The position numbers and the translations under genes are program-made. Source: Candidatus Parcubacteria bacterium (GTDB taxonomy: Bacteria > Patescibacteriota > Patescibacteriia > UBA1558 > GWA2-36-10). Taken from it: a DNA stretch of 64,000 nucleotides. The stretch lies in the NCBI GenBank assembly GCA_018664825.1, contig JABJNO010000017.1, positions 163,011 to 227,010 on the forward strand, written 5' to 3'. Under the pieces are notes generated by a model. The model saw only the letters and a program-made list of their open reading frames with translations. It ran no database searches and was not told where the DNA came from. Of the stretch, positions 11,611-57,321 are shown in pieces; positions within the stretch are counted from its first letter, which is position 1, and every line of letters begins with the position of its first letter.

Positions 11611-11670
11611 ATTTTAAGGATATTTAATAAATTATATTATTATATCAAATTTATGACATTTTGTCAATAT

Positions 11671-12069
11671 CTAGTCAATTAGCTCCAACTGAGAACAATC
11701 AACTTCAATAATACTACCTTTACCAAGGCTTTCATCTACCACTGTGACTTTTGCTTTAGGATAATTAATTTCCATTACTATTACTGTTGCGACTTTCTGT
11801 ACATTTTCCGGTACATCTTGGACTCTTGATTCATCGATCAATGGATAATGCACTACGTCCCCCTCTTTGTAAGGTAATATGCATTCTCCTAAATACTTCT
11901 TTAGAAAACTTATATTTAAGGTAATAGACTCTTGAAGCGTTTTGGATGTATTAAAATCCCAGGTACCCACTACATCAATCAAGGCATCATTGAGTTCTCC
12001 TATCCTAAGATTAGCCTTGTCCAGTCTTCGGTTCAACTCTATACATTTTTCTGTTTTTGTAGCCGGCAT
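11671..12069 (-). CDS. Hypothetical 132-aa protein.
   Basis: ORF track only. Confidence 0.4.
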   Translation of the reverse strand: MPATKTEKCIELNRRLDKANLRIGELNDALIDVVGTWDFNTSKTLQESITLNISFLKKYLGECILPYKEGDVVHYPLIDESRVQDVPENVQKVATVIVMEINYPKAKVTVVDESLGKGSIIEVDCSQLELID

Positions 12070-17833: not shown

Positions 17834-18039
17834 GGTTTTGACTCCTTTTCAAGGTAGAAAGATAGACTGTTAATGAGCTATTATAATGTATTAATCTACA
17901 ACAATGTCCCAAAAGTGTCAATAATAATTGACATAAACAGTCAAAAATTATATAGTAATCTGTCAGGAGAATGTTCTTATAATTTAAAAGTGAGGTCCAA
18001 AAAAACGTAGTTAAATACTACAAACCTAGGAGTAAAATC

Positions 18040-18237
18040 ATGACAGACACTTGGTGCAAACAAGCTAATTGTAGCCATTGCGGTGGAAAAACTAAATGTA
18101 ACTGTTCAACTTGCGGAGGTAATCAACCAGGTACTTTTGACAGTAAACCTAATTGGTGTGCGGGTATTTGCAAAGTTTGCAAAGGTTCTGGCAAAGTGCC
18201 AAATCCTTACTACGATCCAAAGACAGGACAACAATGA
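18040..18237 (+). CDS. Small Cys-rich protein (65 aa) with DnaJ-type CxxCxGxG zinc-finger repeats.
   Basis: CSHCGG, CSTCGG and CKVCKGSG motifs. RBS AGGAG upstream. Terminator 18245..18272 downstream. Confidence 0.5.
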   Translation: MTDTWCKQANCSHCGGKTKCNCSTCGGNQPGTFDSKPNWCAGICKVCKGSGKVPNPYYDPKTGQQ

Positions 18238-18355
18238 AAATAACCCCCATACAAAAGTATGGGGGTTTTATTATTGACAATATCTGTATATCATAATATA
18301 TTAAATTGTTCGAAAAAGTCCTTTTAAACCCAAACCTCTGAAAGGAGGTGAAATC

Positions 18356-25598: not shown

Positions 25599-26172
25599 GC
25601 CGCTTCTCTTCTTGAGCTTCAGCTGTGTTATCCAAAAGTTTATTTAAATTGTCATCACTATTTAATTTTTCAAAATCTGGCAACTCTGTCACAGAATCTA
25701 TTCCCAGATGACGTAAAAAATCCATAGTAATAGAATAAGTAGTAGCTAGACTATCTTTGTCATCACGAGTTTCTACAAAACCACGAATCAACAAATTTCT
25801 CAAAATCAAACTACAATTGACACCACGAATCTGCTCAAGCTCTTCTTTGGATATTGGTTGACGATAAGCTATGATAGTCAAGGTTTCCAAAGATGGCTTA
25901 GTAAGCTCGCTAGTCAACTCTTCTTTGTAGTATTCTTGCAAAATTTTGGCATTGTCGGGATTGCTAATCAATCGAATCTTATTGTTGTTTATAGCTATAT
26001 GAACACCACTTTCTAAAGTGTTTAATTTTTCTTGGAGCTCAGCTACCAAAGATTTTATTTTGTCTTCATCAACAGACAAAAAACTAGCCAATTCTTTGGT
26101 GGTCAACGGTTTACCCGCTACCAACAACAAGCTCTCTAAAGCTGAAGATTTATTACTCATACTATTCACCAT
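25579..26172 (-). CDS. scpB: Segregation and condensation protein B.
   Basis: LESLLLVAGKPLTTKELASFL winged-helix N-terminus. Adjacent to scpA. Confidence 0.8.
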   Translation of the reverse strand: MVNSMSNKSSALESLLLVAGKPLTTKELASFLSVDEDKIKSLVAELQEKLNTLESGVHIAINNNKIRLISNPDNAKILQEYYKEELTSELTKPSLETLTIIAYRQPISKEELEQIRGVNCSLILRNLLIRGFVETRDDKDSLATTYSITMDFLRHLGIDSVTELPDFEKLNSDDNLNKLLDNTAEAQEEKRLEKEEK

Positions 26173-26866
26173 TTTTATTAATATTTAGATCACCAAACAT
26201 ATCGTCCTGATGGACCATGATTTCTTTTTGTTTGACTAGCTCCAACATTGCCAAAAAACTGACAATCACTTCCATTTTATTATTTTTAGCTCTCAACAAT
26301 TCGTTGAAACTAAATTTATTTTTATTACGAATCAAATCTTTTATGTTTTTTATTCTCTCTCCAATAGACACTGCTCGAGCGATCACAGCTTTTGGCAAAT
26401 TAACCACTCTTTGAATACGAGCCAAAACTCCACCAAACATTTCTTGTAAAAGTCCTGTGTCTACATTTTTGGGCTCAATAAATCCTTTTTGCAAAATATT
26501 TTTGTAGCTCGCCACCGGGCTATGAGATCTTTTCTTTTTATCAGAAAATATTTTTTGGATATGTTTACTAGCCTCATAATACTGACGATAGATTTTGAGC
26601 TGATGTTCTAGATCTACCACTTCTTCATCATCAGTAGCTAGCTCTGGCAAAAGAAACTTTGATTTGATATAAATCAATTTTGAAGCGATTAATAAAAAAT
26701 CAGCCACCTCTTCGGAAGCTAAATTTTCATTGTTCTCAATATAGTCCAAGTATTGATCAGTAATTTTGGCCAGAGAAATTTCTGTAATCTGTAGTTTGTT
26801 TTTCTCTATCAACTGCAAAAGGAGATCAAGCGGACCTTCAAATTGTTCTACCTGAATTTTGTGCAT
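26162..26866 (-). CDS. scpA: Segregation and condensation protein A.
   Basis: FEGPLDLLLQLIEKNKL motif. Overlaps the scpB start. Confidence 0.8.
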   Translation of the reverse strand: MHKIQVEQFEGPLDLLLQLIEKNKLQITEISLAKITDQYLDYIENNENLASEEVADFLLIASKLIYIKSKFLLPELATDDEEVVDLEHQLKIYRQYYEASKHIQKIFSDKKKRSHSPVASYKNILQKGFIEPKNVDTGLLQEMFGGVLARIQRVVNLPKAVIARAVSIGERIKNIKDLIRNKNKFSFNELLRAKNNKMEVIVSFLAMLELVKQKEIMVHQDDMFGDLNINKNGE

Positions 26867-26934
26867 TATTTATAAAAAAATAACACCTATATTATAGCAT
26901 TTTTATAGTATTATTTCCAGATTTTTGGGAATAA

Positions 26935-27095
26935 AAAAAAGGGGACCGCCGTAGCTGGGTGCTGGCGGTCCCCGTTGGACTGTCGCTTGATAGCGGAGGG
27001 CGTTGGCAGGAGGCTACCAGCGACAGTGGATGTTTGCTATTAGATAACTTATCTAATTATGCTTTATTATATGGTACGTTTCTCAATTGATTTAG
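26935..27095 (-). ncRNA. Candidate small RNA (~155 nt): promoter TTGACA-17-TATACT (27097..27125) to terminator GGGGACCGCC..GGCGGTCCCC plus U8 (26935..26973). Contains a long bulged hairpin whose 18-nt loop carries two CCUCC motifs.
   Basis: Seen directly. Consensus promoter, no ORF of 30 aa or more, stable stem ACUGUCGCU/AGCGACAGU plus GGUAGC/GCUAUC, loop CUCCUGCCAACGCCCUCC, intrinsic terminator. Confidence 0.35.
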
Positions 27096-27149
27096 CAGTA
27101 TACACTATATTTGATATTTTGTCAACCCCCTATACGAAAACAATAAAAA

Positions 27150-27515
27150 ATGGGCCCAAGCGATTACCTGGGCCCTGCAAGTCCCTCCCACCGGGATGAC
27201 TTACTGACTAAAACAAAAACGTTGGTCAGCTGAGCTGAAAACATCTATTGCTTTCATACCTCGTGGCGTGATCCTACTAAAATGGTTCGGATCAACAGAT
27301 CTCTTAATTTTTTTACCCTTCAAGGTCATTTTATGCATCTAGCATATTGACAGGCACTTCAAAGAGAGCTGAGTTTAGTATTTCACCCTAAACCAAGGAT
27401 AGTTGTTGTTTGATGCGTTGAAAACACCAACAGTTTTGCCATGCCGACACTTGCATGCTTCTGGGCGTAAAAACGCACCGCCTTCTGCACACAAGCTTCC
27501 TGTTTCAGCACTGGC
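27150..27515 (-). ncRNA. Candidate ncRNA unit A (~360 nt): weak promoter (TTTACA..TATATA near 27525-27550), conserved 5' domain 27367..27491, variable 3' part, terminator GGGCCCAGG..CTTGGGCCC plus U6 (27150..27182).
   Basis: The ~125-nt segment is ~80% identical to 27775..27900. No conserved reading frame between the copies. Confidence 0.3.
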
Positions 27516-27554
27516 TTTATATAACAATTTTATTATTTTGTAAAGTAAAAAAAG

Positions 27555-27928
27555 GAGGCCTAAACAATAAATGCTTAGGCCCCAGTGCCTTAGACTAAGC
27601 AGTAATAAGTCCAAAGCTTACTAGAAAAAGAACGATCAGCGGGGTGATAGTTAAAAAACTATCTTCTCATAATAATCTATCTCTATTAAAGAGATAGTAC
27701 AGCTATAAAGTTAATTTCTGGTCTATTATACTTTTGTATAATTAGACAAACAAACGGCGGAAACTAACTAATTAGCTGAGTCCAGTATTTCACCCTGAAC
27801 CAAGGATAGTCGTTGTTTGGTGCGTTGTAAACACCGACGCTAGTAGATGATTGCTGAAATTGCTTGCTTCTGGGCGTAAAAACGCACCGCCTTCTGCACA
27901 GCAACTGTTCTTCATTATTCTAGCGTCA
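27555..27928 (-). ncRNA. Candidate ncRNA unit B (~370 nt): consensus promoter TTGACA-16-TGcTATAAT (27933..27960), conserved 5' domain 27775..27900, variable 3' part with an 8-bp perfect hairpin, terminator GGCCTAAGC..GCTTAGGCC plus U7 (27555..27590).
   Basis: Paralogous to unit A. Between the copies, substitutions and a non-3n indel break any reading frame. Confidence 0.3.
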
Positions 27929-27994
27929 GTATTATAGCATAGTTATGCTATTTTGTCAATATATATACTCTCCCCTATTTTAGCAATAAATAAA

Positions 27995-28030
27995 AAAGGG
28001 GCCCAGTAATACAACCGGGCCCCAGGACAT
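27995..28030 (-). terminator. Terminator GGGGCCCGGTTGTATTACTGGGCCCC plus U6.
   Basis: Perfect GC hairpin plus U-run on the minus strand. A second terminator lies at 28168..28197, directly after the aspS stop. Confidence 0.6.
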
Positions 28031-28197
28031 CATTAGAGTCGGTTGGGGGTACAACTTAATTGCACGATTGTGGTGTGCAACCCTCTAATGATTATCCAAA
28101 CTAAAAGAACTTAACGTCTATAATACATATATTTTGGATATCTGTCAATAGCTAAAGCGGGTAAAATAAAAAGCCCCGGACTAGCCGAGGCTTTTCT

Positions 28198-29616
28198 TTA
28201 TTTCTTTTTTATTTCCAGTCCAAGTTCATCAAGTTGAGCTTTATCTACTGGTGATGGCGAATCCATCATTGGATCTCTGCCGTCAGAGGTCAAAGGAAAA
28301 GCGGTCACTTCTTTGAGATTTTTCTCTCCCAAAAGGACCATCATCAATCTATCAAGTCCTGGGGCAATACCGCCGTGTGGTGGTACTCCATATTTGAAAG
28401 CTTCAAAATAATGCTGAAACTGTTTTTTCTGTTCATCAGTAAAACCAATCAAATCCCAAACTTTTTCCTGAATCTTCATATCATGGATACGGACAGCTCC
28501 TCCGCCTACCTCAAAACCATTGAGAGCCAAATCATGTTGATATGCCTTGGCTTTACCTGGATCTGAATCCAACAAAGGAATATCCTCTTCTTTTGGCATA
28601 GTAAACATATTGTGACTTGGTCCCCGAGTGTCTCCAGCACCGTGAAATTTGTCTTCTTCGGTCTGCTTGGCAAACAACGGGAAATTGACTATCCAAGAAA
28701 ATGCCAATTCATTTGGATCATTTTTATCTTTACGTAAATCTGGTTTATCATTACCATATTTTTTCATGGCCTCATCATAATCTATTCGTGGCCATGGCTT
28801 GCTTGTGATTTTCTTTTCAGGGAACAAAGTCTCTACCATTTCAGTAAACATCTTTTCGGTCAGATCCAGAATCTCTTCTTGAGTCATAAAACTCATTTCC
28901 ATATCCAACTGATAAAATTCACCCGGACTTCGGTCTGCTCTAGCATCCTCATCTCGAAAACATGGAGCTACTTGAAAATATCTATCCATACCCGCTACCA
29001 TCAATAGCTGTTTGTACTGTTGAGGTGCTTGTGGTAAAGCAAAGAAATTTCCTGGATGAAGTCTAGAAGGTACCAGATAGTCCCTAGCTCCTTCTGGAGT
29101 AGACTTTGAAAGTATTGGAGTCTGGATTTCTACAAAATCATTTTTGTGTAGCCATTCTCTAAAAAACATTATTACATTGTCGCGAGCTACGATATTGTTT
29201 TTCATACGCTCATGACGAAGATCTAGATATCTATGTTTGAGACGAAGATCTTCTCCAGCCTGACGTTCTTCATTATCTATTTCAAATGGTGGGGTTTCAG
29301 CCTCTGATAATATCTCAATCTTTTTGGCCAATACTTCTACTGTACCTGTAGCCAAATCTTTGTTTATTTGTTTTTCTCCTCTTTTTTGAACTATCCCTTC
29401 TATAGATAGTACAAATTCTGGACGAATATTATTGAGTATTTTTTGAGAATCTTCATCGAGCTCAGCAGGAACTGCTACTACTTGGAGTATGCCCCAACGA
29501 TCACGGATATCAAGAAATGCAATTTTACCCATGTTTCGGCGGACATTTACCCAGCCTTTTATAAGGACTGTCTTGTCTGCTTGTCCTACCGTCTCTATTG
29601 TTTTTATTCTTTTCAT
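28198..29616 (-). CDS. aspS: Aspartyl-tRNA synthetase (short form, reduced or absent GAD insertion).
   Basis: Class IIb motifs FRDEDARADRSPGEF, QHDLALNGFEVGGGAVRIHD, GVPPHGGIAPGLDRLMM. N-terminal OB fold GWVNVRRNMGKIAFLDIRD. Confidence 0.85.
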   Translation of the reverse strand: MKRIKTIETVGQADKTVLIKGWVNVRRNMGKIAFLDIRDRWGILQVVAVPAELDEDSQKILNNIRPEFVLSIEGIVQKRGEKQINKDLATGTVEVLAKKIEILSEAETPPFEIDNEERQAGEDLRLKHRYLDLRHERMKNNIVARDNVIMFFREWLHKNDFVEIQTPILSKSTPEGARDYLVPSRLHPGNFFALPQAPQQYKQLLMVAGMDRYFQVAPCFRDEDARADRSPGEFYQLDMEMSFMTQEEILDLTEKMFTEMVETLFPEKKITSKPWPRIDYDEAMKKYGNDKPDLRKDKNDPNELAFSWIVNFPLFAKQTEEDKFHGAGDTRGPSHNMFTMPKEEDIPLLDSDPGKAKAYQHDLALNGFEVGGGAVRIHDMKIQEKVWDLIGFTDEQKKQFQHYFEAFKYGVPPHGGIAPGLDRLMMVLLGEKNLKEVTAFPLTSDGRDPMMDSPSPVDKAQLDELGLEIKKK

Positions 29617-49381: not shown

Positions 49382-51142
49382 TTAAGCAATAAACCCACCT
49401 ACCTGTTTTTCCCATAACCTTTTATAGAGGCCTCCTGATTTCTTGATAAGCACTTGGTGGGTACCCTGTTCTACTATATTTCCTTTATCCAAAACTAAGA
49501 TTCTATCCATCTTCATGATAGTAGATAATCTATGAGCGACCACTATTACTGTTTTATCTTTCATAAGATTGGCTAAAGCATCTTGAATCATCTCTTCTGA
49601 TTCAGAATCCAAAGAGGATGTTGCTTCATCCAATATCAAAATTGGAGAATTTTTAAGTATAGACCGGGCAATAGCTACACGCTGACGTTCTCCTCCAGAA
49701 AGTTTTACTCCTCTTTCTCCAACATAGGTCTGATAAGCTTCGGGAAAATCATTTATAAATTTATCAGCATGTGCTAATTTGGCAGCTTTTTTAATTTCTA
49801 AATCTGTAGCCCTTGGCTGACCATAGCGAATATTTTCTTTGAGAGTCCTGTGAAACAATATTGGATCTTGATTGACCAAGGATATATTTTTCCACAAAGA
49901 ATCTTGAGTAACACCAATTATTCTTTGATCATCTATCAAAATCTTACCCCCATCAATATCATAATTTCTGAGTAATAAATTTATCAAAGTAGATTTTCCA
50001 GAGCCAGATGGTCCAATTAGGGCTATTTTTTCCTTGGCTTTAATATTTAAATTAAAATTAGAGATAATCTTACGAGTCTTATTATAAGCAAAAGATACTT
50101 TCTTAAATTCTATTTGCCCTCCTTTTACTTTTAATACCTTGGCAGTTTTTACATCTTGAATTTCATGAGGCTGCTCTAATATTTCAGTCATTTCTTCTGC
50201 TTCGGCCATAGCTTCATAATATTTTCTAATAATACGACCAAAATTCCATAATCTCATCATAATAGTAATCAAATAAGTTTGAATCAAAACAAATTCACCC
50301 ACACTTATAATACCTTTTTGCCATAATGAAATAGCATAATACATAATACCAATCTCCAAAACCATCATAAGTAAAGTCTGAGCAGCTTCAAAATAATTAG
50401 CTAAATTCCAAGTGAATTGCCTCAATTTTTGTAATTGACCAGTTGCTGTTTTAAAATGCTTTCTCTCTCTGCTGTAGCCGGTAAATAATTTTAAATTTAA
50501 ATGGTTGGTAATAGTGTCAGCTAAAACTCCGGTGACTTTAGAATTTAATCCTGCTCTTTGCACATCGTATTTTAATTTGTACAAAGAAAAATAATAATTA
50601 ACTAGCATATAAATTATTATCCATATCAGTATTCCTAAACCTAGCCATATGTTTCGCTTACCTAAAAATATAATAATCAAAAATAAGTTTACGAAAATTG
50701 GTAAAAAATCCCAAAAAATTAAATCTGTCACCACTTCAAAAGATCTAGAAAATCTATTTACTTTTTTGACTAGTGATCCTACAAAATTATTATTGAAAAA
50801 AGAAATAGAATGCTTGTGCATATATGCAAAAGATGAGTTGGATATACTAGCCATAGCATTGGTCTGAAAGTATGCTGTCAAAAATGTAGCTGCTCTCCAA
50901 AAAATCCAAGAACTCAAATAAACGGCCAATACTTTCATCAAGGTAATTTTGAGCATTGGAATCTTATCAAGAGTATTATCTGAACTAGTTAGGATATCAA
51001 AAAAGTCTTTATAATATAACGGTCCAATGACATGACCAAGCGAAGCAATGGTTATAGAAACGATTATAAACCAAGGAGCCCATCTATATTGTACTAGATG
51101 TTTCCAAAAAATTTTAAATGTTTGTTTTGTTAAATACTGCAT
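49382..51142 (-). CDS. ABC exporter, fused permease and ATPase (MsbA-like).
   Basis: Six TM helices, then Walker A GPSGSGKST, signature LSGGERQRVAIAR, Walker B ILILDEATS. -10 TATAAT lies only ~9 nt before the ATG, so the transcript may be leaderless. Confidence 0.85.
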   Translation of the reverse strand: MQYLTKQTFKIFWKHLVQYRWAPWFIIVSITIASLGHVIGPLYYKDFFDILTSSDNTLDKIPMLKITLMKVLAVYLSSWIFWRAATFLTAYFQTNAMASISNSSFAYMHKHSISFFNNNFVGSLVKKVNRFSRSFEVVTDLIFWDFLPIFVNLFLIIIFLGKRNIWLGLGILIWIIIYMLVNYYFSLYKLKYDVQRAGLNSKVTGVLADTITNHLNLKLFTGYSRERKHFKTATGQLQKLRQFTWNLANYFEAAQTLLMMVLEIGIMYYAISLWQKGIISVGEFVLIQTYLITIMMRLWNFGRIIRKYYEAMAEAEEMTEILEQPHEIQDVKTAKVLKVKGGQIEFKKVSFAYNKTRKIISNFNLNIKAKEKIALIGPSGSGKSTLINLLLRNYDIDGGKILIDDQRIIGVTQDSLWKNISLVNQDPILFHRTLKENIRYGQPRATDLEIKKAAKLAHADKFINDFPEAYQTYVGERGVKLSGGERQRVAIARSILKNSPILILDEATSSLDSESEEMIQDALANLMKDKTVIVVAHRLSTIMKMDRILVLDKGNIVEQGTHQVLIKKSGGLYKRLWEKQVGGFIA

Positions 51143-51164
51143 AATTTTTTAATTATAGCATATT

Positions 51165-51239
51165 TGGCTCCGGGGGCAGGATTCGAACCTGCGATATCCA
51201 CGTTAACAGCGTGGCGTTGTACCACTCAACTACCCCGGA
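51165..51239 (-). tRNA. tRNA-Asn (anticodon GUU).
   Basis: Manual fold. Acceptor UCCGGGG/CCCCGGA, D-loop AGUGGUA, anticodon loop CUGUUAA, T-loop UUCGAAU, CCA. Confidence 0.85.
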
Positions 51240-51914: not shown

Positions 51915-53639
51915 TTAGTTGGTTATTGGCTCAGCAGCCTTCTGGTGAGCACGAGCACGTCTACGCAACTTTTCACCTTCAGTGATCTGAGCGACCTGCA
52001 TCTGGAGAAAATCTCCGATAAAGGTCTTTGTCACTGCTTCGTGGTCAGTCGGTAGACCAAACTCAGTCAAGGCCAAGATAGCCACTGTCTCTTGATAGCG
52101 AATCAGATAAGCATCTTTTACTTCACACCTGAACCACAACTTGTGACTACAGTTGAAAGTCAAAATGCCATTTTCGCGATCAAAAGTATATGCTTCACTG
52201 GAGCGAGGCATATAATCAAAGGCGAATTGCAGACCACTGCTACTACCTTTGACAGTCTTTCGCCTCTGACCCTTTGGACCTTGGACCGTGATAGGAGTGT
52301 GACCCTGCATCTCATCGGGTCGGACTCTATCCTTGCCCTTGGCACCAGACCCCTTGCCCGTGTCTTTGAGCTTGGGAGCTGACATCGCAGGATTATCCTG
52401 CGTAGCCTTGGGAGGCAAATCAGCATGACCTTTTCCGGTCGTGCCAAAAGCAAAATTCTCGATCAGGTCTTTGAGACCTCTTTGCTCAAGAATACCCTCG
52501 ACTACCGAAATAGCTACCAAACCAAGTCGCTGAAAGCGAGCCTCTTTGGAGCTATTTTGGATCTCACCCATGATCTCCTTGCCAACTTTGTTCCACCACT
52601 CTTCGATGCACATACACATGTCAACGAAGTTGTCGCTGTCCACAAACCGCTTACGGTCAGGATGGAGCTTGACGCGAGTAGCGGTGATTTCACCCTCAAA
52701 TATTCCTGATCTGAGAGCATCTATCGCTTCTTCGGGGAGGCCCAAAGATTTGACCTTGTCCCAAAAAGTCTTGGTAGTAAAACGAAATTCATCGTTTCGT
52801 TCACCAAAAAGTACCTTACCTCTCCGATCTTTCTTCTTGCCCTGCTTGGGGGCAATAAAAAGATCAAAGTAAGTAACTACTTTACTATCAGCTACCTCGA
52901 AAATCACCGGTTCGATAGGCTGGCCCTCAAAGCCAGATGCCTCAACCTTGTATGCCCTTTTGGCATTGGATTCATCGATATAATCAATATCAACGACCAC
53001 GCCACGCTTGTGCATGACTGTGCCAAAACGCTCCAAAATAGCGCCGTTGAGTTGATGAGGAGTCAGACGGGTAAGCTCCCTATCCTTGGTGATTTTCATC
53101 ACTCTCACCTGAGTACGCCAATCGACATAAATAGGCGTCCTGCCGCGAGCAGACCTCTTTTTGGAAGTCTCACGTCCAGGAGCATAGGTGTGCCACTTGA
53201 GCGGTGTCATGGGAATACCTTCCCCAACTACCAAGCCCTTGACCTCATCCGAGATAAACTTCCACTCGACATATGCATTGACGCCGTTTGCCTTTGCGCA
53301 AGACGTAAAGGTAAACATGTCACACTTATCGAGCGGAGAAATCAATCCCCGACCGAAACGACCAAGTTTTCCACTTGTCTTCATGGTCTGAAAAATCTGA
53401 CCAAGAGCCTGCTCAAACTTGTCCTTGGTGACACCTTCGCCGTCATCCATTACTTCGAGAGTCCGTTTTGAAAGATTCAGTTTGACTCGGATATTTTTGG
53501 CATTGGCATCTAGTCCATTTTGGATAATCTCCAAAATGAAATCCTGAAGATAAGGATAACACTGAGCGGCTGCCAAAAGCGCTCCTCCTAAATGTACACC
53601 AAGCTTACTTTCTCCAGCAGTCGCACGTCGAGCGTTCAT
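51915..53639 (-). CDS. GHKL-superfamily ATPase (MORC/MutL/HSP90-like Bergerat fold) with a Gly/Lys-rich linker and unknown C-terminal domain.
   Basis: Motif I ILEIIQNGLDANAKNIRV (ExxxNxxDA), motif II VMDDGEGV (DxGxG), G-rich motif III GKLGRFGRG. GC ~48%. Terminator 51880..51907. Start overlaps the upstream gene stop (ATGA). Confidence 0.65.
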   Translation of the reverse strand: MNARRATAGESKLGVHLGGALLAAAQCYPYLQDFILEIIQNGLDANAKNIRVKLNLSKRTLEVMDDGEGVTKDKFEQALGQIFQTMKTSGKLGRFGRGLISPLDKCDMFTFTSCAKANGVNAYVEWKFISDEVKGLVVGEGIPMTPLKWHTYAPGRETSKKRSARGRTPIYVDWRTQVRVMKITKDRELTRLTPHQLNGAILERFGTVMHKRGVVVDIDYIDESNAKRAYKVEASGFEGQPIEPVIFEVADSKVVTYFDLFIAPKQGKKKDRRGKVLFGERNDEFRFTTKTFWDKVKSLGLPEEAIDALRSGIFEGEITATRVKLHPDRKRFVDSDNFVDMCMCIEEWWNKVGKEIMGEIQNSSKEARFQRLGLVAISVVEGILEQRGLKDLIENFAFGTTGKGHADLPPKATQDNPAMSAPKLKDTGKGSGAKGKDRVRPDEMQGHTPITVQGPKGQRRKTVKGSSSGLQFAFDYMPRSSEAYTFDRENGILTFNCSHKLWFRCEVKDAYLIRYQETVAILALTEFGLPTDHEAVTKTFIGDFLQMQVAQITEGEKLRRRARAHQKAAEPITN

Positions 53640-54568: not shown

Positions 54569-57241
54569 CTAAGTCCTGTGCCTTTTACGATAAGTGATAA
54601 ATATCCATTTTACAGTCTCTATCAATAAGAGACCTATTACAATAACGCCCATAAGTATCTCCCATTCTTGCCAGCCCAGAGGAACTGTTCTCAAGACACG
54701 ATTGAAAAAAGGAATATATATTGAGGATAGTTGCAAAAATAATCCCAACACAACTGCGGCATTTAAATATTTATTTCTAAATGGTTTTGATTTCAAAATA
54801 ATCCTATCCAAACTTTTTACACTAAATACATAAAATAAAGTATCAATACCCAAGGCTGTAAAAGTAACTGTTCTAGCCAAATCTAGATTACCTGTCTCTT
54901 TCCAAAAATAATAAAATAATCCCAAACTGCTACCACTAGTAATCAAACTAATAATAACAATCAAAACTCTTCCTTCAAAATCAACTAAGGATTTTTCTTT
55001 TGTTGGCCTCTTGTTCATAATTTCTGGATCCTCAGGCTCCATAGTCAGGGCTAATGCCGGGAAGCCATCACTAACCAAGTTGACCCACAAAATCTGTGCA
55101 GCCAAAATTGGTAATGGAATTTGCAACAACAAACTACCTACAATAATCAAAACTTCTGAAAAACTATCAGACAGCAAATATAAAATTACTTTTTTGATGT
55201 TTGCAAATATCACCCTCCCCTGCTTGATAGACATCACGATAGTTTCAAAATTATTATCAAGCAAAACTAGATCCGCAGTTTCTTTGGCTACATCAGAACC
55301 GCTAAATACAGCTACTCCTATATCAGCAGCCTTGAGCGCCGGCGCATCATTGACGCCATCGCCAGTCATAGAGACTATTTCTCCTTTTTTTTGCCAAGCA
55401 TTGATAATACGTAATTTATCAGCCGGCGTCACCCGAGCATAAACTTTTATATCTTTGATTCTTTTACTCAGTTCTTCGTCTGTCATTTTGAGAAGCTCAT
55501 CGCCAGTCACCACAGTGTCCTTGGTTGTGGCTATGCCTAGATCTTTGGCAATCTTGTTGGCAGTAAATTTATTATCACCCGTGATAATAACAGTCTTGAT
55601 GCCGGCAGACAGTGTCTTGGCCAATGTCGCCTTTGTCTCTGGACGAAGTGGATCAGATAATCCCCAAATACCTACAAAAGTAAAACCCTTAGGCTCATCC
55701 TTGAAATCATCAAAGTCTTTGAAATTTTTTGATACCAAACGATAACCACCACCCAAAACACGCAAACCTTTTTTACTAGCTTCTTGCCATTTTTTATTAA
55801 AAAGATCTTCTTTGGCTTTGGTGAGCTTGCTAGTTTTTTTACCATCTAAATATTTATCTGAAAAACTAAGCATTTTTTCTGGAGCACCCTTGATAAACAA
55901 AATATCCTGCCTAGCGTCATAGCTATGCCTAGTTATCATATATTTTCGGAGAGAATCAAAAGGAATCTCTTCTAAACGAGGATATTTTTTGTTTAAGCCT
56001 TTTAAGTCATATCCCCTGGAACCAAACAATAACAAAGCTTTTTCTGTTGGACTACCTATCACCAACCAAGTATCTTGACTATCTTTTGGATTTTGAACAA
56101 TCGAATCATTACACAAAAAGGCAGTGTGCCCCAACATAGTAAGCTCTTTGTCTATGTCCATATCCCGCAAAGATTCCACCGCCAAATCCACCTGATGGCT
56201 AGCAGAGATAAGCTGAGTAACCCTCATCTCACCCTCGGTCAAGGTGCCTGTCTTGTCTGTACAAATCACAGTAGTAGAACCCAGTGTCTCGGCAGATACC
56301 AATTTTCTAACCAAACCATTGTGCTTGAGTATCCTCTGCATACCAACTGTCAAAATCATAGTCATACTTATGACCAATCCCTCAGGAATAGCAGAAACCG
56401 CGACTGCGACCGCCATAGTAAACATATGAGCCCATTCATATCCCTGAACAATACCCAAAACAAACAACAGGAACACAATAACCATGATTATCTTGGTGAT
56501 ATTTTTGGCAAAATTATCAAGTCTTTTTTGTAAAGGTGTTTTTTCTTCTTTGGTTTCTTTGAGTAATTGTGTAATCTTGCCCATCTCAGTTTGAAGGCCT
56601 GTGCTCGTCACTACTACCTGAGCCCGCCCTTCTACTATCAAAGTACCCATAAAAACCATATTGCTTCTTTCTGCCAATACAGTCCCTACATCCAAGGTAC
56701 CCAATTTTTTCTTGACTGGCCAAGATTCTCCTGTTAGCGAAGCTTCATTGACTTCAAAGTCATTGAGAATAACCAAGTATCCATCAGCCGGCACTCTATC
56801 TCCTGATTGCAACAAAATAATATCTCCTGGTACGAGTTCATTTGCTTCTACTTTTTTTTCGTGTCCACTTCGCAAAACAATACTTTCTTTTTTGACAATC
56901 TTGTTTAGTTTTTCCAAAGACTTGTTGGCTTTGTACTCTTGAAAAAACCCAACTACTACATTGAGAAAAACTGCTGCAAAAATAACATAAGCATCTACAA
57001 ACTCTCCAAAAAAGAAGCTCACAGCACCAGCAATCAATAAAACATACACCAAAGCACTTTTAAATTGTGATAAAAGCAAACGCCAAGCAGAAAACTTTTC
57101 TGCCTGAGCTAAAATGTTTAAACCATGTTTATTTAGACTTTTCTTGGCCTCATCATCAGACAAGCCTTGTTTGCTACTATTTAGCTGCTTCAAAACTTGA
57201 GCCGAGCTTAAAGTGTGCCAATTGATATCAATCTTTGACAT
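54569..57241 (-). CDS. Cation-transporting P-type ATPase (P2-type, Ca2+/Mg2+-like).
   Basis: DKTGTLT phosphorylation site, TGES, MTGDGVNDAPALK hinge, 10 TM helices. Confidence 0.85.
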   Translation of the reverse strand: MSKIDINWHTLSSAQVLKQLNSSKQGLSDDEAKKSLNKHGLNILAQAEKFSAWRLLLSQFKSALVYVLLIAGAVSFFFGEFVDAYVIFAAVFLNVVVGFFQEYKANKSLEKLNKIVKKESIVLRSGHEKKVEANELVPGDIILLQSGDRVPADGYLVILNDFEVNEASLTGESWPVKKKLGTLDVGTVLAERSNMVFMGTLIVEGRAQVVVTSTGLQTEMGKITQLLKETKEEKTPLQKRLDNFAKNITKIIMVIVFLLFVLGIVQGYEWAHMFTMAVAVAVSAIPEGLVISMTMILTVGMQRILKHNGLVRKLVSAETLGSTTVICTDKTGTLTEGEMRVTQLISASHQVDLAVESLRDMDIDKELTMLGHTAFLCNDSIVQNPKDSQDTWLVIGSPTEKALLLFGSRGYDLKGLNKKYPRLEEIPFDSLRKYMITRHSYDARQDILFIKGAPEKMLSFSDKYLDGKKTSKLTKAKEDLFNKKWQEASKKGLRVLGGGYRLVSKNFKDFDDFKDEPKGFTFVGIWGLSDPLRPETKATLAKTLSAGIKTVIITGDNKFTANKIAKDLGIATTKDTVVTGDELLKMTDEELSKRIKDIKVYARVTPADKLRIINAWQKKGEIVSMTGDGVNDAPALKAADIGVAVFSGSDVAKETADLVLLDNNFETIVMSIKQGRVIFANIKKVILYLLSDSFSEVLIIVGSLLLQIPLPILAAQILWVNLVSDGFPALALTMEPEDPEIMNKRPTKEKSLVDFEGRVLIVIISLITSGSSLGLFYYFWKETGNLDLARTVTFTALGIDTLFYVFSVKSLDRIILKSKPFRNKYLNAAVVLGLFLQLSSIYIPFFNRVLRTVPLGWQEWEILMGVIVIGLLLIETVKWIFITYRKRHRT

Positions 57242-57321
57242 GAATTTATTATACCATACAAAGCTCTTCTACATAAATCAAAACTTTGATATAATTCTGT
57301 ATATTATATATAATATAAAAC

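Follow-up and report, generated by a model that had tools for sequence, protein, structure and literature searches.

What is encoded in the 1331-nt gap between aspS (28198-29616, minus strand) and scpA (26162-26866, minus strand) in the genome of an uncultivated Patescibacteria (Candidate Phyla Radiation, CPR) bacterium? The gap lies in a 64-kb stretch of contig JABJNO010000017.1, hereafter the window, and no gene is annotated in it in any of the listed assemblies that span the two units described below. An earlier examination of the letters without database searches (the sequence-only reading) had noticed here two tandem paralogous promoter-to-terminator units with no conserved reading frame, and took them for a candidate small RNA (sRNA) pair. 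This proposal holds under every test that we ran. The two units, unit 1 (~27959-27547) and unit 2 (~27544-27145), are duplicated, show constraint on a common core, lack a shared reading frame, and keep their helices through compensatory change. We consider it very likely that they are genes for structured non-coding RNAs (ncRNAs). The fuller picture, of tandemly duplicated genes for a lineage-restricted, compact and trans-acting RNA of ~300-375 nt, is probable overall. The specific mode of action, in which the RNA would serve as a protein-binding scaffold, is put forward tentatively.

Two tandem promoter-to-terminator units

Both units are on the minus strand, as are all features of the gap given below. 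The promoter of unit 1 (27931-27959) matches the consensus at 12 of 12 positions (TTGACA, 17-nt spacer, TATAAT) and has a TG before the -10 hexamer (extended -10). Its intrinsic terminator (27547-27583; 27583-27555 in the terminator scan) consists of 12 pairs followed by a T run, and the predicted transcript, starting from the promoter and ending at the terminator, would cover 27547-27925 (~375 nt). Unit 2 has a weaker promoter (27516-27544; TTTACA, 17-nt spacer, TATAAA), which falls below the rule of our promoter scan that the -10 hexamer must end in T. Since it aligns with the promoter of unit 1 and is homologous to it, the promoter was included in the duplication. The unit 2 terminator (27145-27175; 27175-27152 in the scan) has 10 pairs, seven of them G-C, and the predicted transcript (27145-27510) would be ~365 nt long. 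A further hairpin stands before each terminator (27588-27616 in unit 1, 27177-27204 in unit 2). Own promoter, own intrinsic terminator, a single strand and an intergenic location, features expected of a stand-alone structured sRNA gene, are found here and likewise in the orthologue described below. The promoters, terminators, conserved blocks and hairpin listed in the sequence-only reading are all present, essentially where it had placed them.

The units share a 5' block of ~125 nt (27774-27900 in unit 1, 27367-27491 in unit 2). The earlier reading had recognised this block and put its identity at ~80%; the value is slightly higher, 84-86% over the whole conserved domain. Two sub-blocks stand out, 27774-27838/27367-27431 (89% identical) and 27860-27900/27451-27491 (98% identical), at a spacing of 407-409 nt. 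Each occurs exactly twice in the window, against 0.00 occurrences expected by chance. A core of 35-36 nt is identical in the two units; the sub-block noted previously as identical in both copies was quoted as the plus strand, and its reverse complement UGUGCAGAAGGCGGUGCGUUUUUACGCCCAGAAGC is the RNA sense.

The two-unit arrangement is the same in five independent assemblies (99.75-100% identical), with few polymorphisms among them, all outside the conserved domain. Thus the duplication is real and not an assembly artefact. An identical ScpA is encoded on GCA_018670855.1 and on several ENA and JGI metagenome contigs, and the nearest named relatives of the window are Komeilibacteria and Parcubacteria metagenome-assembled genomes. 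A third copy was found in a related species (contig L011) with the same gene order and a ScpA 85% identical to that of the window. There it is a single copy between the same two genes, with its own consensus promoter (TTGACA-17-TATAAT) and terminator. The comparisons below are based on these three sequences, two paralogues and one orthologue, from two closely related species.

Conservation is concentrated in the core

The three copies have diverged unevenly. The core is 80-87% identical among them (86% between the paralogues, 87% between unit 1 and L011), and the promoter and leader 63-74% (64% between the paralogues). The variable domain is barely above the level of shuffled sequences between the paralogues and at that level between unit 1 and L011. 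A block of ~25 nt just before the terminator region (27620-27640 in unit 1, 27207-27230 in unit 2) is again conserved (71-80% identity, against ~47% for shuffles). The sequence-only reading had described the ~185 nt downstream of the 5' block as unrelated between the copies; this is right for the middle part but not for the block before the terminator region. The G+C content of the core (0.46-0.48) is above that of the genome (~0.36-0.39). A core of high identity with a periphery close to random is the pattern expected when purifying selection acts on the core, and not after a recent duplication that evolved neutrally.

A conserved secondary structure closed by long-range helices

The predicted RNAs fold into structures more stable than those of shuffled sequences. 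The minimum free energy (MFE) is -122.1 kcal/mol for unit 1 (shuffles -85.3 +/- 5.3, z = -6.99) and -124.2 kcal/mol for unit 2 (shuffles -98.8 +/- 5.8, z = -4.35), and the L011 copy gives z = -6.16.

In unit 1, the leader strand GCUAGAAUAAUGAAGAAC (27907-27924) pairs with 27620-27633 in a long-range helix, P1, of 14 pairs in the MFE fold. The hairpin H1 (27858-27906) follows, composed of a lower stem, an internal loop AGAA/CAGAA, a GGC(G)/(C)GCC stem and an 11-nt apical loop. It contains the 35-36-nt core identical in unit 2, and the three sequences do not differ in its internal loops or in the pairs next to these. The other long-range helix, P2, joins UCAGC (27853-27857) to GCUGA (27636-27640), its equivalents being GUCGGC/GCUGAC in unit 2 and GUCAGC/GCUGAC in L011; the three conserved hairpins, H1, H3' and H4, are enclosed by P2. 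H3' (27809-27838; GUCG.UGUUU/AAACA.CGAC, with the 10-nt loop ACAACGCACC) has 100% of its cells paired, and one of its C-G pairs is changed on both sides to U-A in unit 2, with the caveat that a competing 5-bp hairpin, GGUGU/GCACC, covaries likewise. H4 (27776-27804; GGUUCAG/CUGGACU, loop GGUGAAAUA, with a 2-bp extension) has no broken pair in any of the three sequences; two of its pairs differ among them on both sides, and three on one side. The variable domain (27641-27775) consists of AU-rich hairpins, among them the perfect 8-bp hairpin at 27677-27697 already pointed out in the sequence-only reading. The conserved 3' block (27620-27640) is made up of the 3' strands of P2 (GCUGA) and P1 (GUUCUUUUUCUAGU).

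The same elements are found in unit 2. Its conserved 5' domain (27369-27509) carries the 5' strand of P1 (27497-27509), H1 (27449-27496), the 5' strand of P2 (27443-27448), H3' (27402-27431) and H4 (27369-27397). The conserved 3' block (27207-27230) holds the 3' strands of P2 (GCUGAC, 27225-27230) and P1 (UUUUUGUUUUAGU, 27207-27219). Its MFE fold has a 13-bp P1 and a 9-pair P2. Relative to unit 1, P1 shows one change on both sides (G-C to A-U) and one on a single side (A-U to G-U), and the lower stem of H1 is kept as a 10-bp helix with a shifted register. P1 and P2 were recovered independently in all three MFE folds, and the leader and 3' block sequences differ in L011.

In the alignment of the three sequences (A4), 94.9% of the cells are paired, against 26-49% for controls in which the 3' partners were displaced by one to three columns. 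Both sides have changed in four of the pairs, and broken pairs are confined to the lower stem of H1. Most substitutions within the three hairpins are compensatory, so that the structure is kept, with a support limited by the number of sequences.

A loop-loop complementarity with competing pairings

The apical-loop segment of H1, GGUGCGUU (27881-27888), is complementary over eight bases to 27819-27826 in the loop of H3' (AACGCACC). All eight positions are Watson-Crick pairs in unit 1, and all eight are paired in each of the three sequences; the corresponding segments of unit 2 are 27472-27479 and 27412-27419. One position of this helix is G-C in unit 1, G-U in unit 2 and A-U in L011. The same 3' base also pairs in the local 5-bp hairpin, where its partner shows the series G/G/A as well. 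Since the base covaries with both partners, the segment appears to have at least two mutually exclusive partners; the pattern is suggestive of both being kept by substitution. In all, the segment AACGCAYC can pair in three ways: in the loop-loop contact, in a plain long helix (predicted by RNAalifold), and in the local 5-bp hairpin. The closing helices, the loop-loop complementarity and the conserved 3' block had all escaped the sequence-only reading.

No match to a known family, and no further members found

The Rfam scan suggested at the outset returned no known family. With Rfam 15 (4227 models) at gathering thresholds, only four tRNAs were detected in the whole window; at E <= 10, the region 26800-28300 gave terminator-like chance matches well below threshold and none across the conserved domain. 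The syntenic loci of the relatives gave tRNAs only, and ARAGORN found no transfer-messenger RNA (tmRNA) in the window or in those loci.

The covariance model R1 scores 154.7 bits for unit 1 (27775-27906), 142.2 bits for unit 2 (27368-27497) and 144 bits for L011, and nothing beyond these copies above 21 bits among candidate stretches from pattern scans. The pattern GTGCAGAAGGCG-N8-20-CCCAGAAGCA matched four times in the GTDB species representatives, in unrelated GC-rich bacteria and by chance (R1 below 18 bits), and did not match in viral contigs. The pattern CAAACAACNACTATCCTT-N7-GGNGAAATA had no match in metagenome contigs, nor a shorter form of it in viral contigs. A looser pattern matched at least 120 metagenome stretches; among the matches listed all were chance ones, the best reaching 20.8 bits with R1. 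Neither unit had a BLAST match among phage records.

Relatives in which ScpA is 60-68% and AspS 83-96% identical keep the aspS-scpA synteny, and the element was not found there: R1 with filters off gave a best E-value of ~0.2 in their syntenic loci. Because of this null result we dropped the idea that the intergenic units of these relatives are diverged homologues. The search for more copies and covariation in related CPR genomes thus yielded one orthologue, with compensatory substitutions, and no further members; on these searches, which for the looser metagenome pattern cover the matches listed, the family is known from two species only. A route through a ScpA fragment (P0002, 99% identical) led to a different genomic context in which the element is not present. 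A 181-aa ScpA fragment 99% identical occurs at L144:1713-2258 and L145:1669-2214, after a thymidylate synthase and an HTH_5 regulator. This fragment could be from a rearranged strain or a chimeric contig.

The universal and well-known RNAs do not fit either. A tmRNA would bring a tRNA-like domain formed from both ends and a tag-peptide frame, of which neither ARAGORN nor Rfam gave any indication. RNase P RNA (P4 strands GGAAAGUCC ... ACAGAA, single copy) and signal recognition particle (SRP) RNA (GNAR tetraloop, symmetric and asymmetric loops) have motifs that are absent from the units, and neither family matched at E <= 10. Both are present in one copy per genome, in contrast to two diverged copies here with an unconserved middle. 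The segments AGGGUGAAA and GGUGCG..CGCACC are what we take to be short resemblances to RNase P and SRP RNA, and the defining motifs of those families do not accompany them.

A proposed compact RNA acting in trans

We propose the following mechanism. The RNA would start a few bases past the sigma-70-type promoter and end at the intrinsic terminator. The 5' leader would pair just upstream of the terminator region (P1), and P2 (CAGC/GCUG) would close a multi-branch core. Three hairpins would make up this core, the first of them distinguished by its invariant, purine-rich internal loop (AGAA/CAGAA). Through the eight complementary bases, the apical loop of H1 may contact the loop of the second hairpin, as a kissing loop or a pseudoknot, and so lock the fold. 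The 85-140 nt that separate the core from the 3' strands of P2 and P1 would form a peripheral domain free to vary. Such a stable compact RNA may act in trans, its invariant internal loop and locked core being recognised by a protein or another partner. It would then work as a ribonucleoprotein scaffold or as a sequestering RNA, which we rank as likelier than action through a linear antisense seed. In this scheme the transcription, the RNA ends, the tertiary contact, the action in trans and the partner are what we infer from the sequence and its folding.

Several points weigh against this proposal. The promoter of unit 2 is weak, and the start sites, 3' ends and expression are predicted from sequence signals. 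The covariation counts are small because only three sequences, from two closely related species and including two paralogues, are available; 12 of 500 shuffles reach the observed covariation score, a control that should not be read as a probability. The tertiary loop-loop contact would be one reading among several of the same complementarity, and the idea of a protein-binding scaffold is drawn from the architecture of the predicted fold. Finally, the element is not found even in relatives with 66-68% identical ScpA, so that the RNA would be dispensable for the wider lineage.

Alternative explanations

The best surviving alternative, which we nevertheless consider unlikely, is that the units encode trans-acting base-pairing sRNAs. 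Their seed would be the single-stranded H3'-H4 linker CAAACAACGACUAUCCUUGG or a conserved loop, possibly acting at ribosome-binding sites (AUCCUU against AAGGAU), and the rest of the molecule a stabilising scaffold. A stand-alone promoter and terminator would suit such an sRNA, as would a conservation strongest in the 5' part, which is common to many sRNAs, and a linker invariant in the three sequences except at the covarying position. Neighbouring units, also in the relatives, carry CCUCC or CCUCCUUACC motifs resembling an anti-Shine-Dalgarno sequence, so the island may hold base-pairing regulators. However, an RNA of 300-375 nt whose multi-branch core is closed by two long-range helices would be an unusual seed-type sRNA, and conservation is highest in a hairpin, with its internal loop, rather than in an open strand. 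No site of at least 11 nt complementary to the conserved segments exists in the 64-kb window except the units' own plus strand, the best being the only 10-mer, at 53089, and most genes of the window have no Shine-Dalgarno sequence. We rejected an anti-Shine-Dalgarno action of the units on these last two grounds, the missing Shine-Dalgarno sequences and the lack of target sites in the window. Taken together, P1 and P2, the complementary loops and the 3' block argue for a compactly folded RNA and not for a simple base-pairing sRNA.

Two related ideas were also tried and discarded. A guide RNA, with a constant scaffold and a variable targeting part, has no support: the variable domains show no match or complement beyond chance in the window and the relatives' loci, and no effector gene is nearby. 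Pairing of the units with the neighbouring small RNAs A and D (described below) gave duplex energies no better than those of shuffled sequences.

A more speculative view, to which we give a rather low probability, starts from the competing pairings themselves. The loop-loop contact and the competing hairpin would constitute a conformational switch, or the contact would be an intermolecular bridge leading to dimers or multimers, possibly of mixed paralogues. The RNA would then represent a new compact class in Patescibacteria, within an aspS-scpA RNA island reshuffled between close relatives. There is a precedent for the second form: in the ROOL, GOLLD and OLE RNAs, contacts first inferred from covariation as tertiary proved to be quaternary, that is intermolecular (PMC12286853).

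It is improbable that the units are a functionless duplicated remnant, whose similarity would reflect recent duplication and whose folds would be a by-product of base composition. The narrow distribution, the small number of sequences (three) and an expression predicted from sequence signals are compatible with a remnant. But the core is kept at 80-87% identity while its flanks are near random, the same core and long-range helices are kept in the orthologue of another species, and the compensatory substitutions, the consensus promoter and the terminators have been retained.

It is very unlikely that the units are small-protein genes or dual-function RNAs. This alternative would rely on an ORF (open reading frame) of 41 aa in unit 1 (27915-27790) and one of 42 aa in unit 2 (27511-27383), with the candidate peptide VFTTHQTTTILGSG. 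The two have their UGA stop in common, as well as ~15 C-terminal residues, VF(T/S)THQTTTILG(S/L)G, in which two substitutions are synonymous as read from the translations. Both start ~6-16 nt from the -10 hexamer, as leaderless or short-leader mRNAs would, and translation with a short leader is plausible since many genes of the window lack a Shine-Dalgarno sequence and some start near a -10 box. However, over their N-terminal two thirds the ORFs run through the identical 35-nt core in frames that differ between the units. In L011, a frame-shifting insertion of 1 nt is later compensated, no ATG, GTG or TTG start is present, and the shared stop is lost; there is no frame that has a start codon and stays open in each of the three copies. 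In the shared C-terminal stretch, each substitution is matched by a compensatory one within an RNA helix, which coding would not predict. Neither a kept frame and start nor the synonymous bias of a small protein-coding gene was seen, and the spanning assemblies annotate no gene here. Protein relatives are also missing. The 41-aa ORF has one match among 1.84 billion representatives, a 281-aa four-repeat protein (E = 2.8e-5), which we rejected because a chance similarity is multiplied here by the four repeats. The sequence-only reading had argued against coding from substitutions mostly non-synonymous in every frame and from an indel that is not a multiple of 3, had dismissed a 79-aa ORF (27375-27614) as probably spurious, and had named a conserved small ORF in homologous copies as the evidence that would count against it. 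The first two judgements are borne out, the 79-aa ORF having no relative among 5.8 billion proteins, and a conserved small ORF was looked for and not found. A conserved full-length protein is already refuted by this comparison of sequences.

We give very little credence to the idea of type I toxin-antitoxin-like mRNAs, or other transcripts inactivated by 5'-3' fold-back, that control a small toxic peptide. A long-distance helix between the 5' and 3' parts and mutually exclusive pairings are hallmarks of the hok-type and AapA-type toxin mRNAs, and both are present here. As in hok and AapA1, the transcript would measure 200-400 nt with paired ends and alternative exclusive local pairings; the intergenic content also turns over fast between relatives, as toxin-antitoxin loci do. 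Unlike them, the locus lacks a small hydrophobic ORF kept among the copies, its ORFs being non-hydrophobic, and no convincing antisense promoter or RNA unit is found on the plus strand.

A cis-acting leader or attenuator that would control the scpA-scpB operon further downstream, as a riboswitch-like aptamer with terminators, is just as improbable: the units lie upstream of scpA on the same strand and present a folded conserved domain followed by terminators, but each terminator is ~185 nt past that domain rather than adjoining it, each unit has its own promoter, no ORF lies downstream inside either unit, unit D (~27125-26938) and a separate scpA promoter (26919-26891) intervene between unit 2 and scpA, and the relatives keep the aspS-scpA synteny without the element.

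Relation to known structured RNAs

We thus return to the stand-alone structured RNA gene. Comparative genomics has uncovered many orphan, lineage-specific structured ncRNA motifs (PMC2864571, PMC8632094). The present units resemble these motifs in being stand-alone intergenic genes with their own promoter and intrinsic terminator, with a G+C content above AT-rich surroundings, with helices supported by compensatory changes, and in their narrow taxonomic range. They differ in having no Rfam match even at E <= 10, in a membership of three from two species, and in a tandem duplication of which the peripheral domain has diverged beyond alignment. Chlorobi-1 and Bacteroidales-1 are examples of such orphan motifs in Rfam. 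Within this well-known type, stand-alone genes for structured sRNAs of a single lineage, the present RNA makes up a new family.

6S RNA (ssrS) is an abundant stable RNA that binds RNA polymerase; it forms a rod of ~180 nt (range ~160-200 nt) with a large central bubble and a closing stem, and in Bacillus the paired paralogues 6S-1 and 6S-2 coexist. The present RNAs share with it the paired 5' and 3' ends and the two paralogues. In contrast to 6S RNA, they are 300-375 nt long, their MFE folds are multi-branched, their conservation lies mainly in the 5' third, and RF00013 and the other 6S models do not match them. ROOL, GOLLD and OLE are widespread RNAs, roughly two to several times larger than these. 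They too show loop-loop complementarity with covariation and tolerate a variable or disordered region within a conserved fold (PMC12286853). Their Rfam models do not match the units, however, and the intermolecular contact seen in them has here its counterpart in a complementarity alone.

The aspS-scpA island and other features of the window

The whole gap between aspS and scpA (26867-28197) is an island of small promoter-to-terminator units, of which each relative examined has a different set (one to four units within 383 to 1331 nt; loci compared: L011:7131-8000, L012:5662-6418, L014:7618-8000, L020:1445-1743, L021:11417-11968, L023:11417-11832, L151:900-1517 and L147:1-519). The flanking gene order is conserved on both sides, and no ORF is listed in the gene tables for the units of the island. 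Those examined (window region, L011, L012, L014, L020, L021 and L023) have no Rfam match and no ARAGORN call.

Unit A (27998-28148) runs from a near-consensus promoter (28148-28120) to a terminator (28023-27998) and contains a hairpin RNA of ~85 nt, AUCAUUAGAGGGUUG ... CAACCGACUCUAAUGAU, without Rfam match. It is well conserved at L011:7190-7345, with one compensatory change in the terminator stem. Unit D (26938-27125), directly upstream of the scpA promoter, carries the C/U-rich motifs CCUCCUGCC and CCCUCC, which resemble the 3' end of 16S rRNA. Its counterparts are at L011:7767-7940, L012:6185-6350, L147:285-440 and L151:1285-1440, the last three with CCUCCUUACC; conservation between the window and L011 is limited to the 3' hairpin. 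To judge from these motifs, unit D-type RNAs may be sRNAs mimicking the anti-Shine-Dalgarno sequence. Unit E (L020:1475-1700, L023:11560-11770) is present in a strain with a 96% identical AspS and in a Komeilibacteria relative, and is absent from the window. It has a tRNA-like mini-structure, in which a stem GGAGGGA..CAG/CUGUCCCUCC surrounds a T-arm-like hairpin CUGGGUUCUAAUCCCAG, without an ARAGORN or Rfam call.

Contigs L004-L010, L146, L149, L150 and L152, from many samples and several species, start 261-485 nt upstream of scpA, often at ~265. These breaks are outside the duplicated block, and suggest that coexisting strains differ upstream of scpA.

Elsewhere in the window, a second promoter-terminator unit (17928-18267, plus strand) was considered as an RNA gene and rejected. 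It contains a 65-aa Cys-rich ORF (18040-18237, plus strand) with CxxC-type motifs and a clear Shine-Dalgarno ribosome-binding site. The segment 40001-48000 has a G+C content of 0.44-0.49, against ~0.36-0.39 elsewhere. Nearly all of its plus-strand genes have strong AAGGAG-type ribosome-binding sites, in contrast to most other genes of the window, which have none. This block may have been horizontally acquired. At 11631-11671, 49382-51170 and 54569-57270 (minus strand), several genes start 7-20 nt past a TATAAT without a Shine-Dalgarno sequence, which suggests that leaderless or short-leader mRNAs are widespread in this genome.

Implications

The general importance of this family is limited by its narrow distribution (two species). 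To our knowledge, apart from the universal ones, few RNAs with a regulatory or structural role have been described in CPR bacteria, which have small genomes and few protein regulators. The interest of the locus lies in its occurrence in a CPR genome, in the doubly covarying alternative pairings at the loop-loop contact, and in the surrounding RNA island of changing content. It offers a concrete and testable RNA candidate in this group, with a consensus promoter, two closing helices, a covarying putative loop-loop contact, and a core that alone was kept after duplication. If these RNAs are expressed, they would provide a handle on RNA-based regulation in CPR bacteria, and a small tractable object for structural work on kissing loops.

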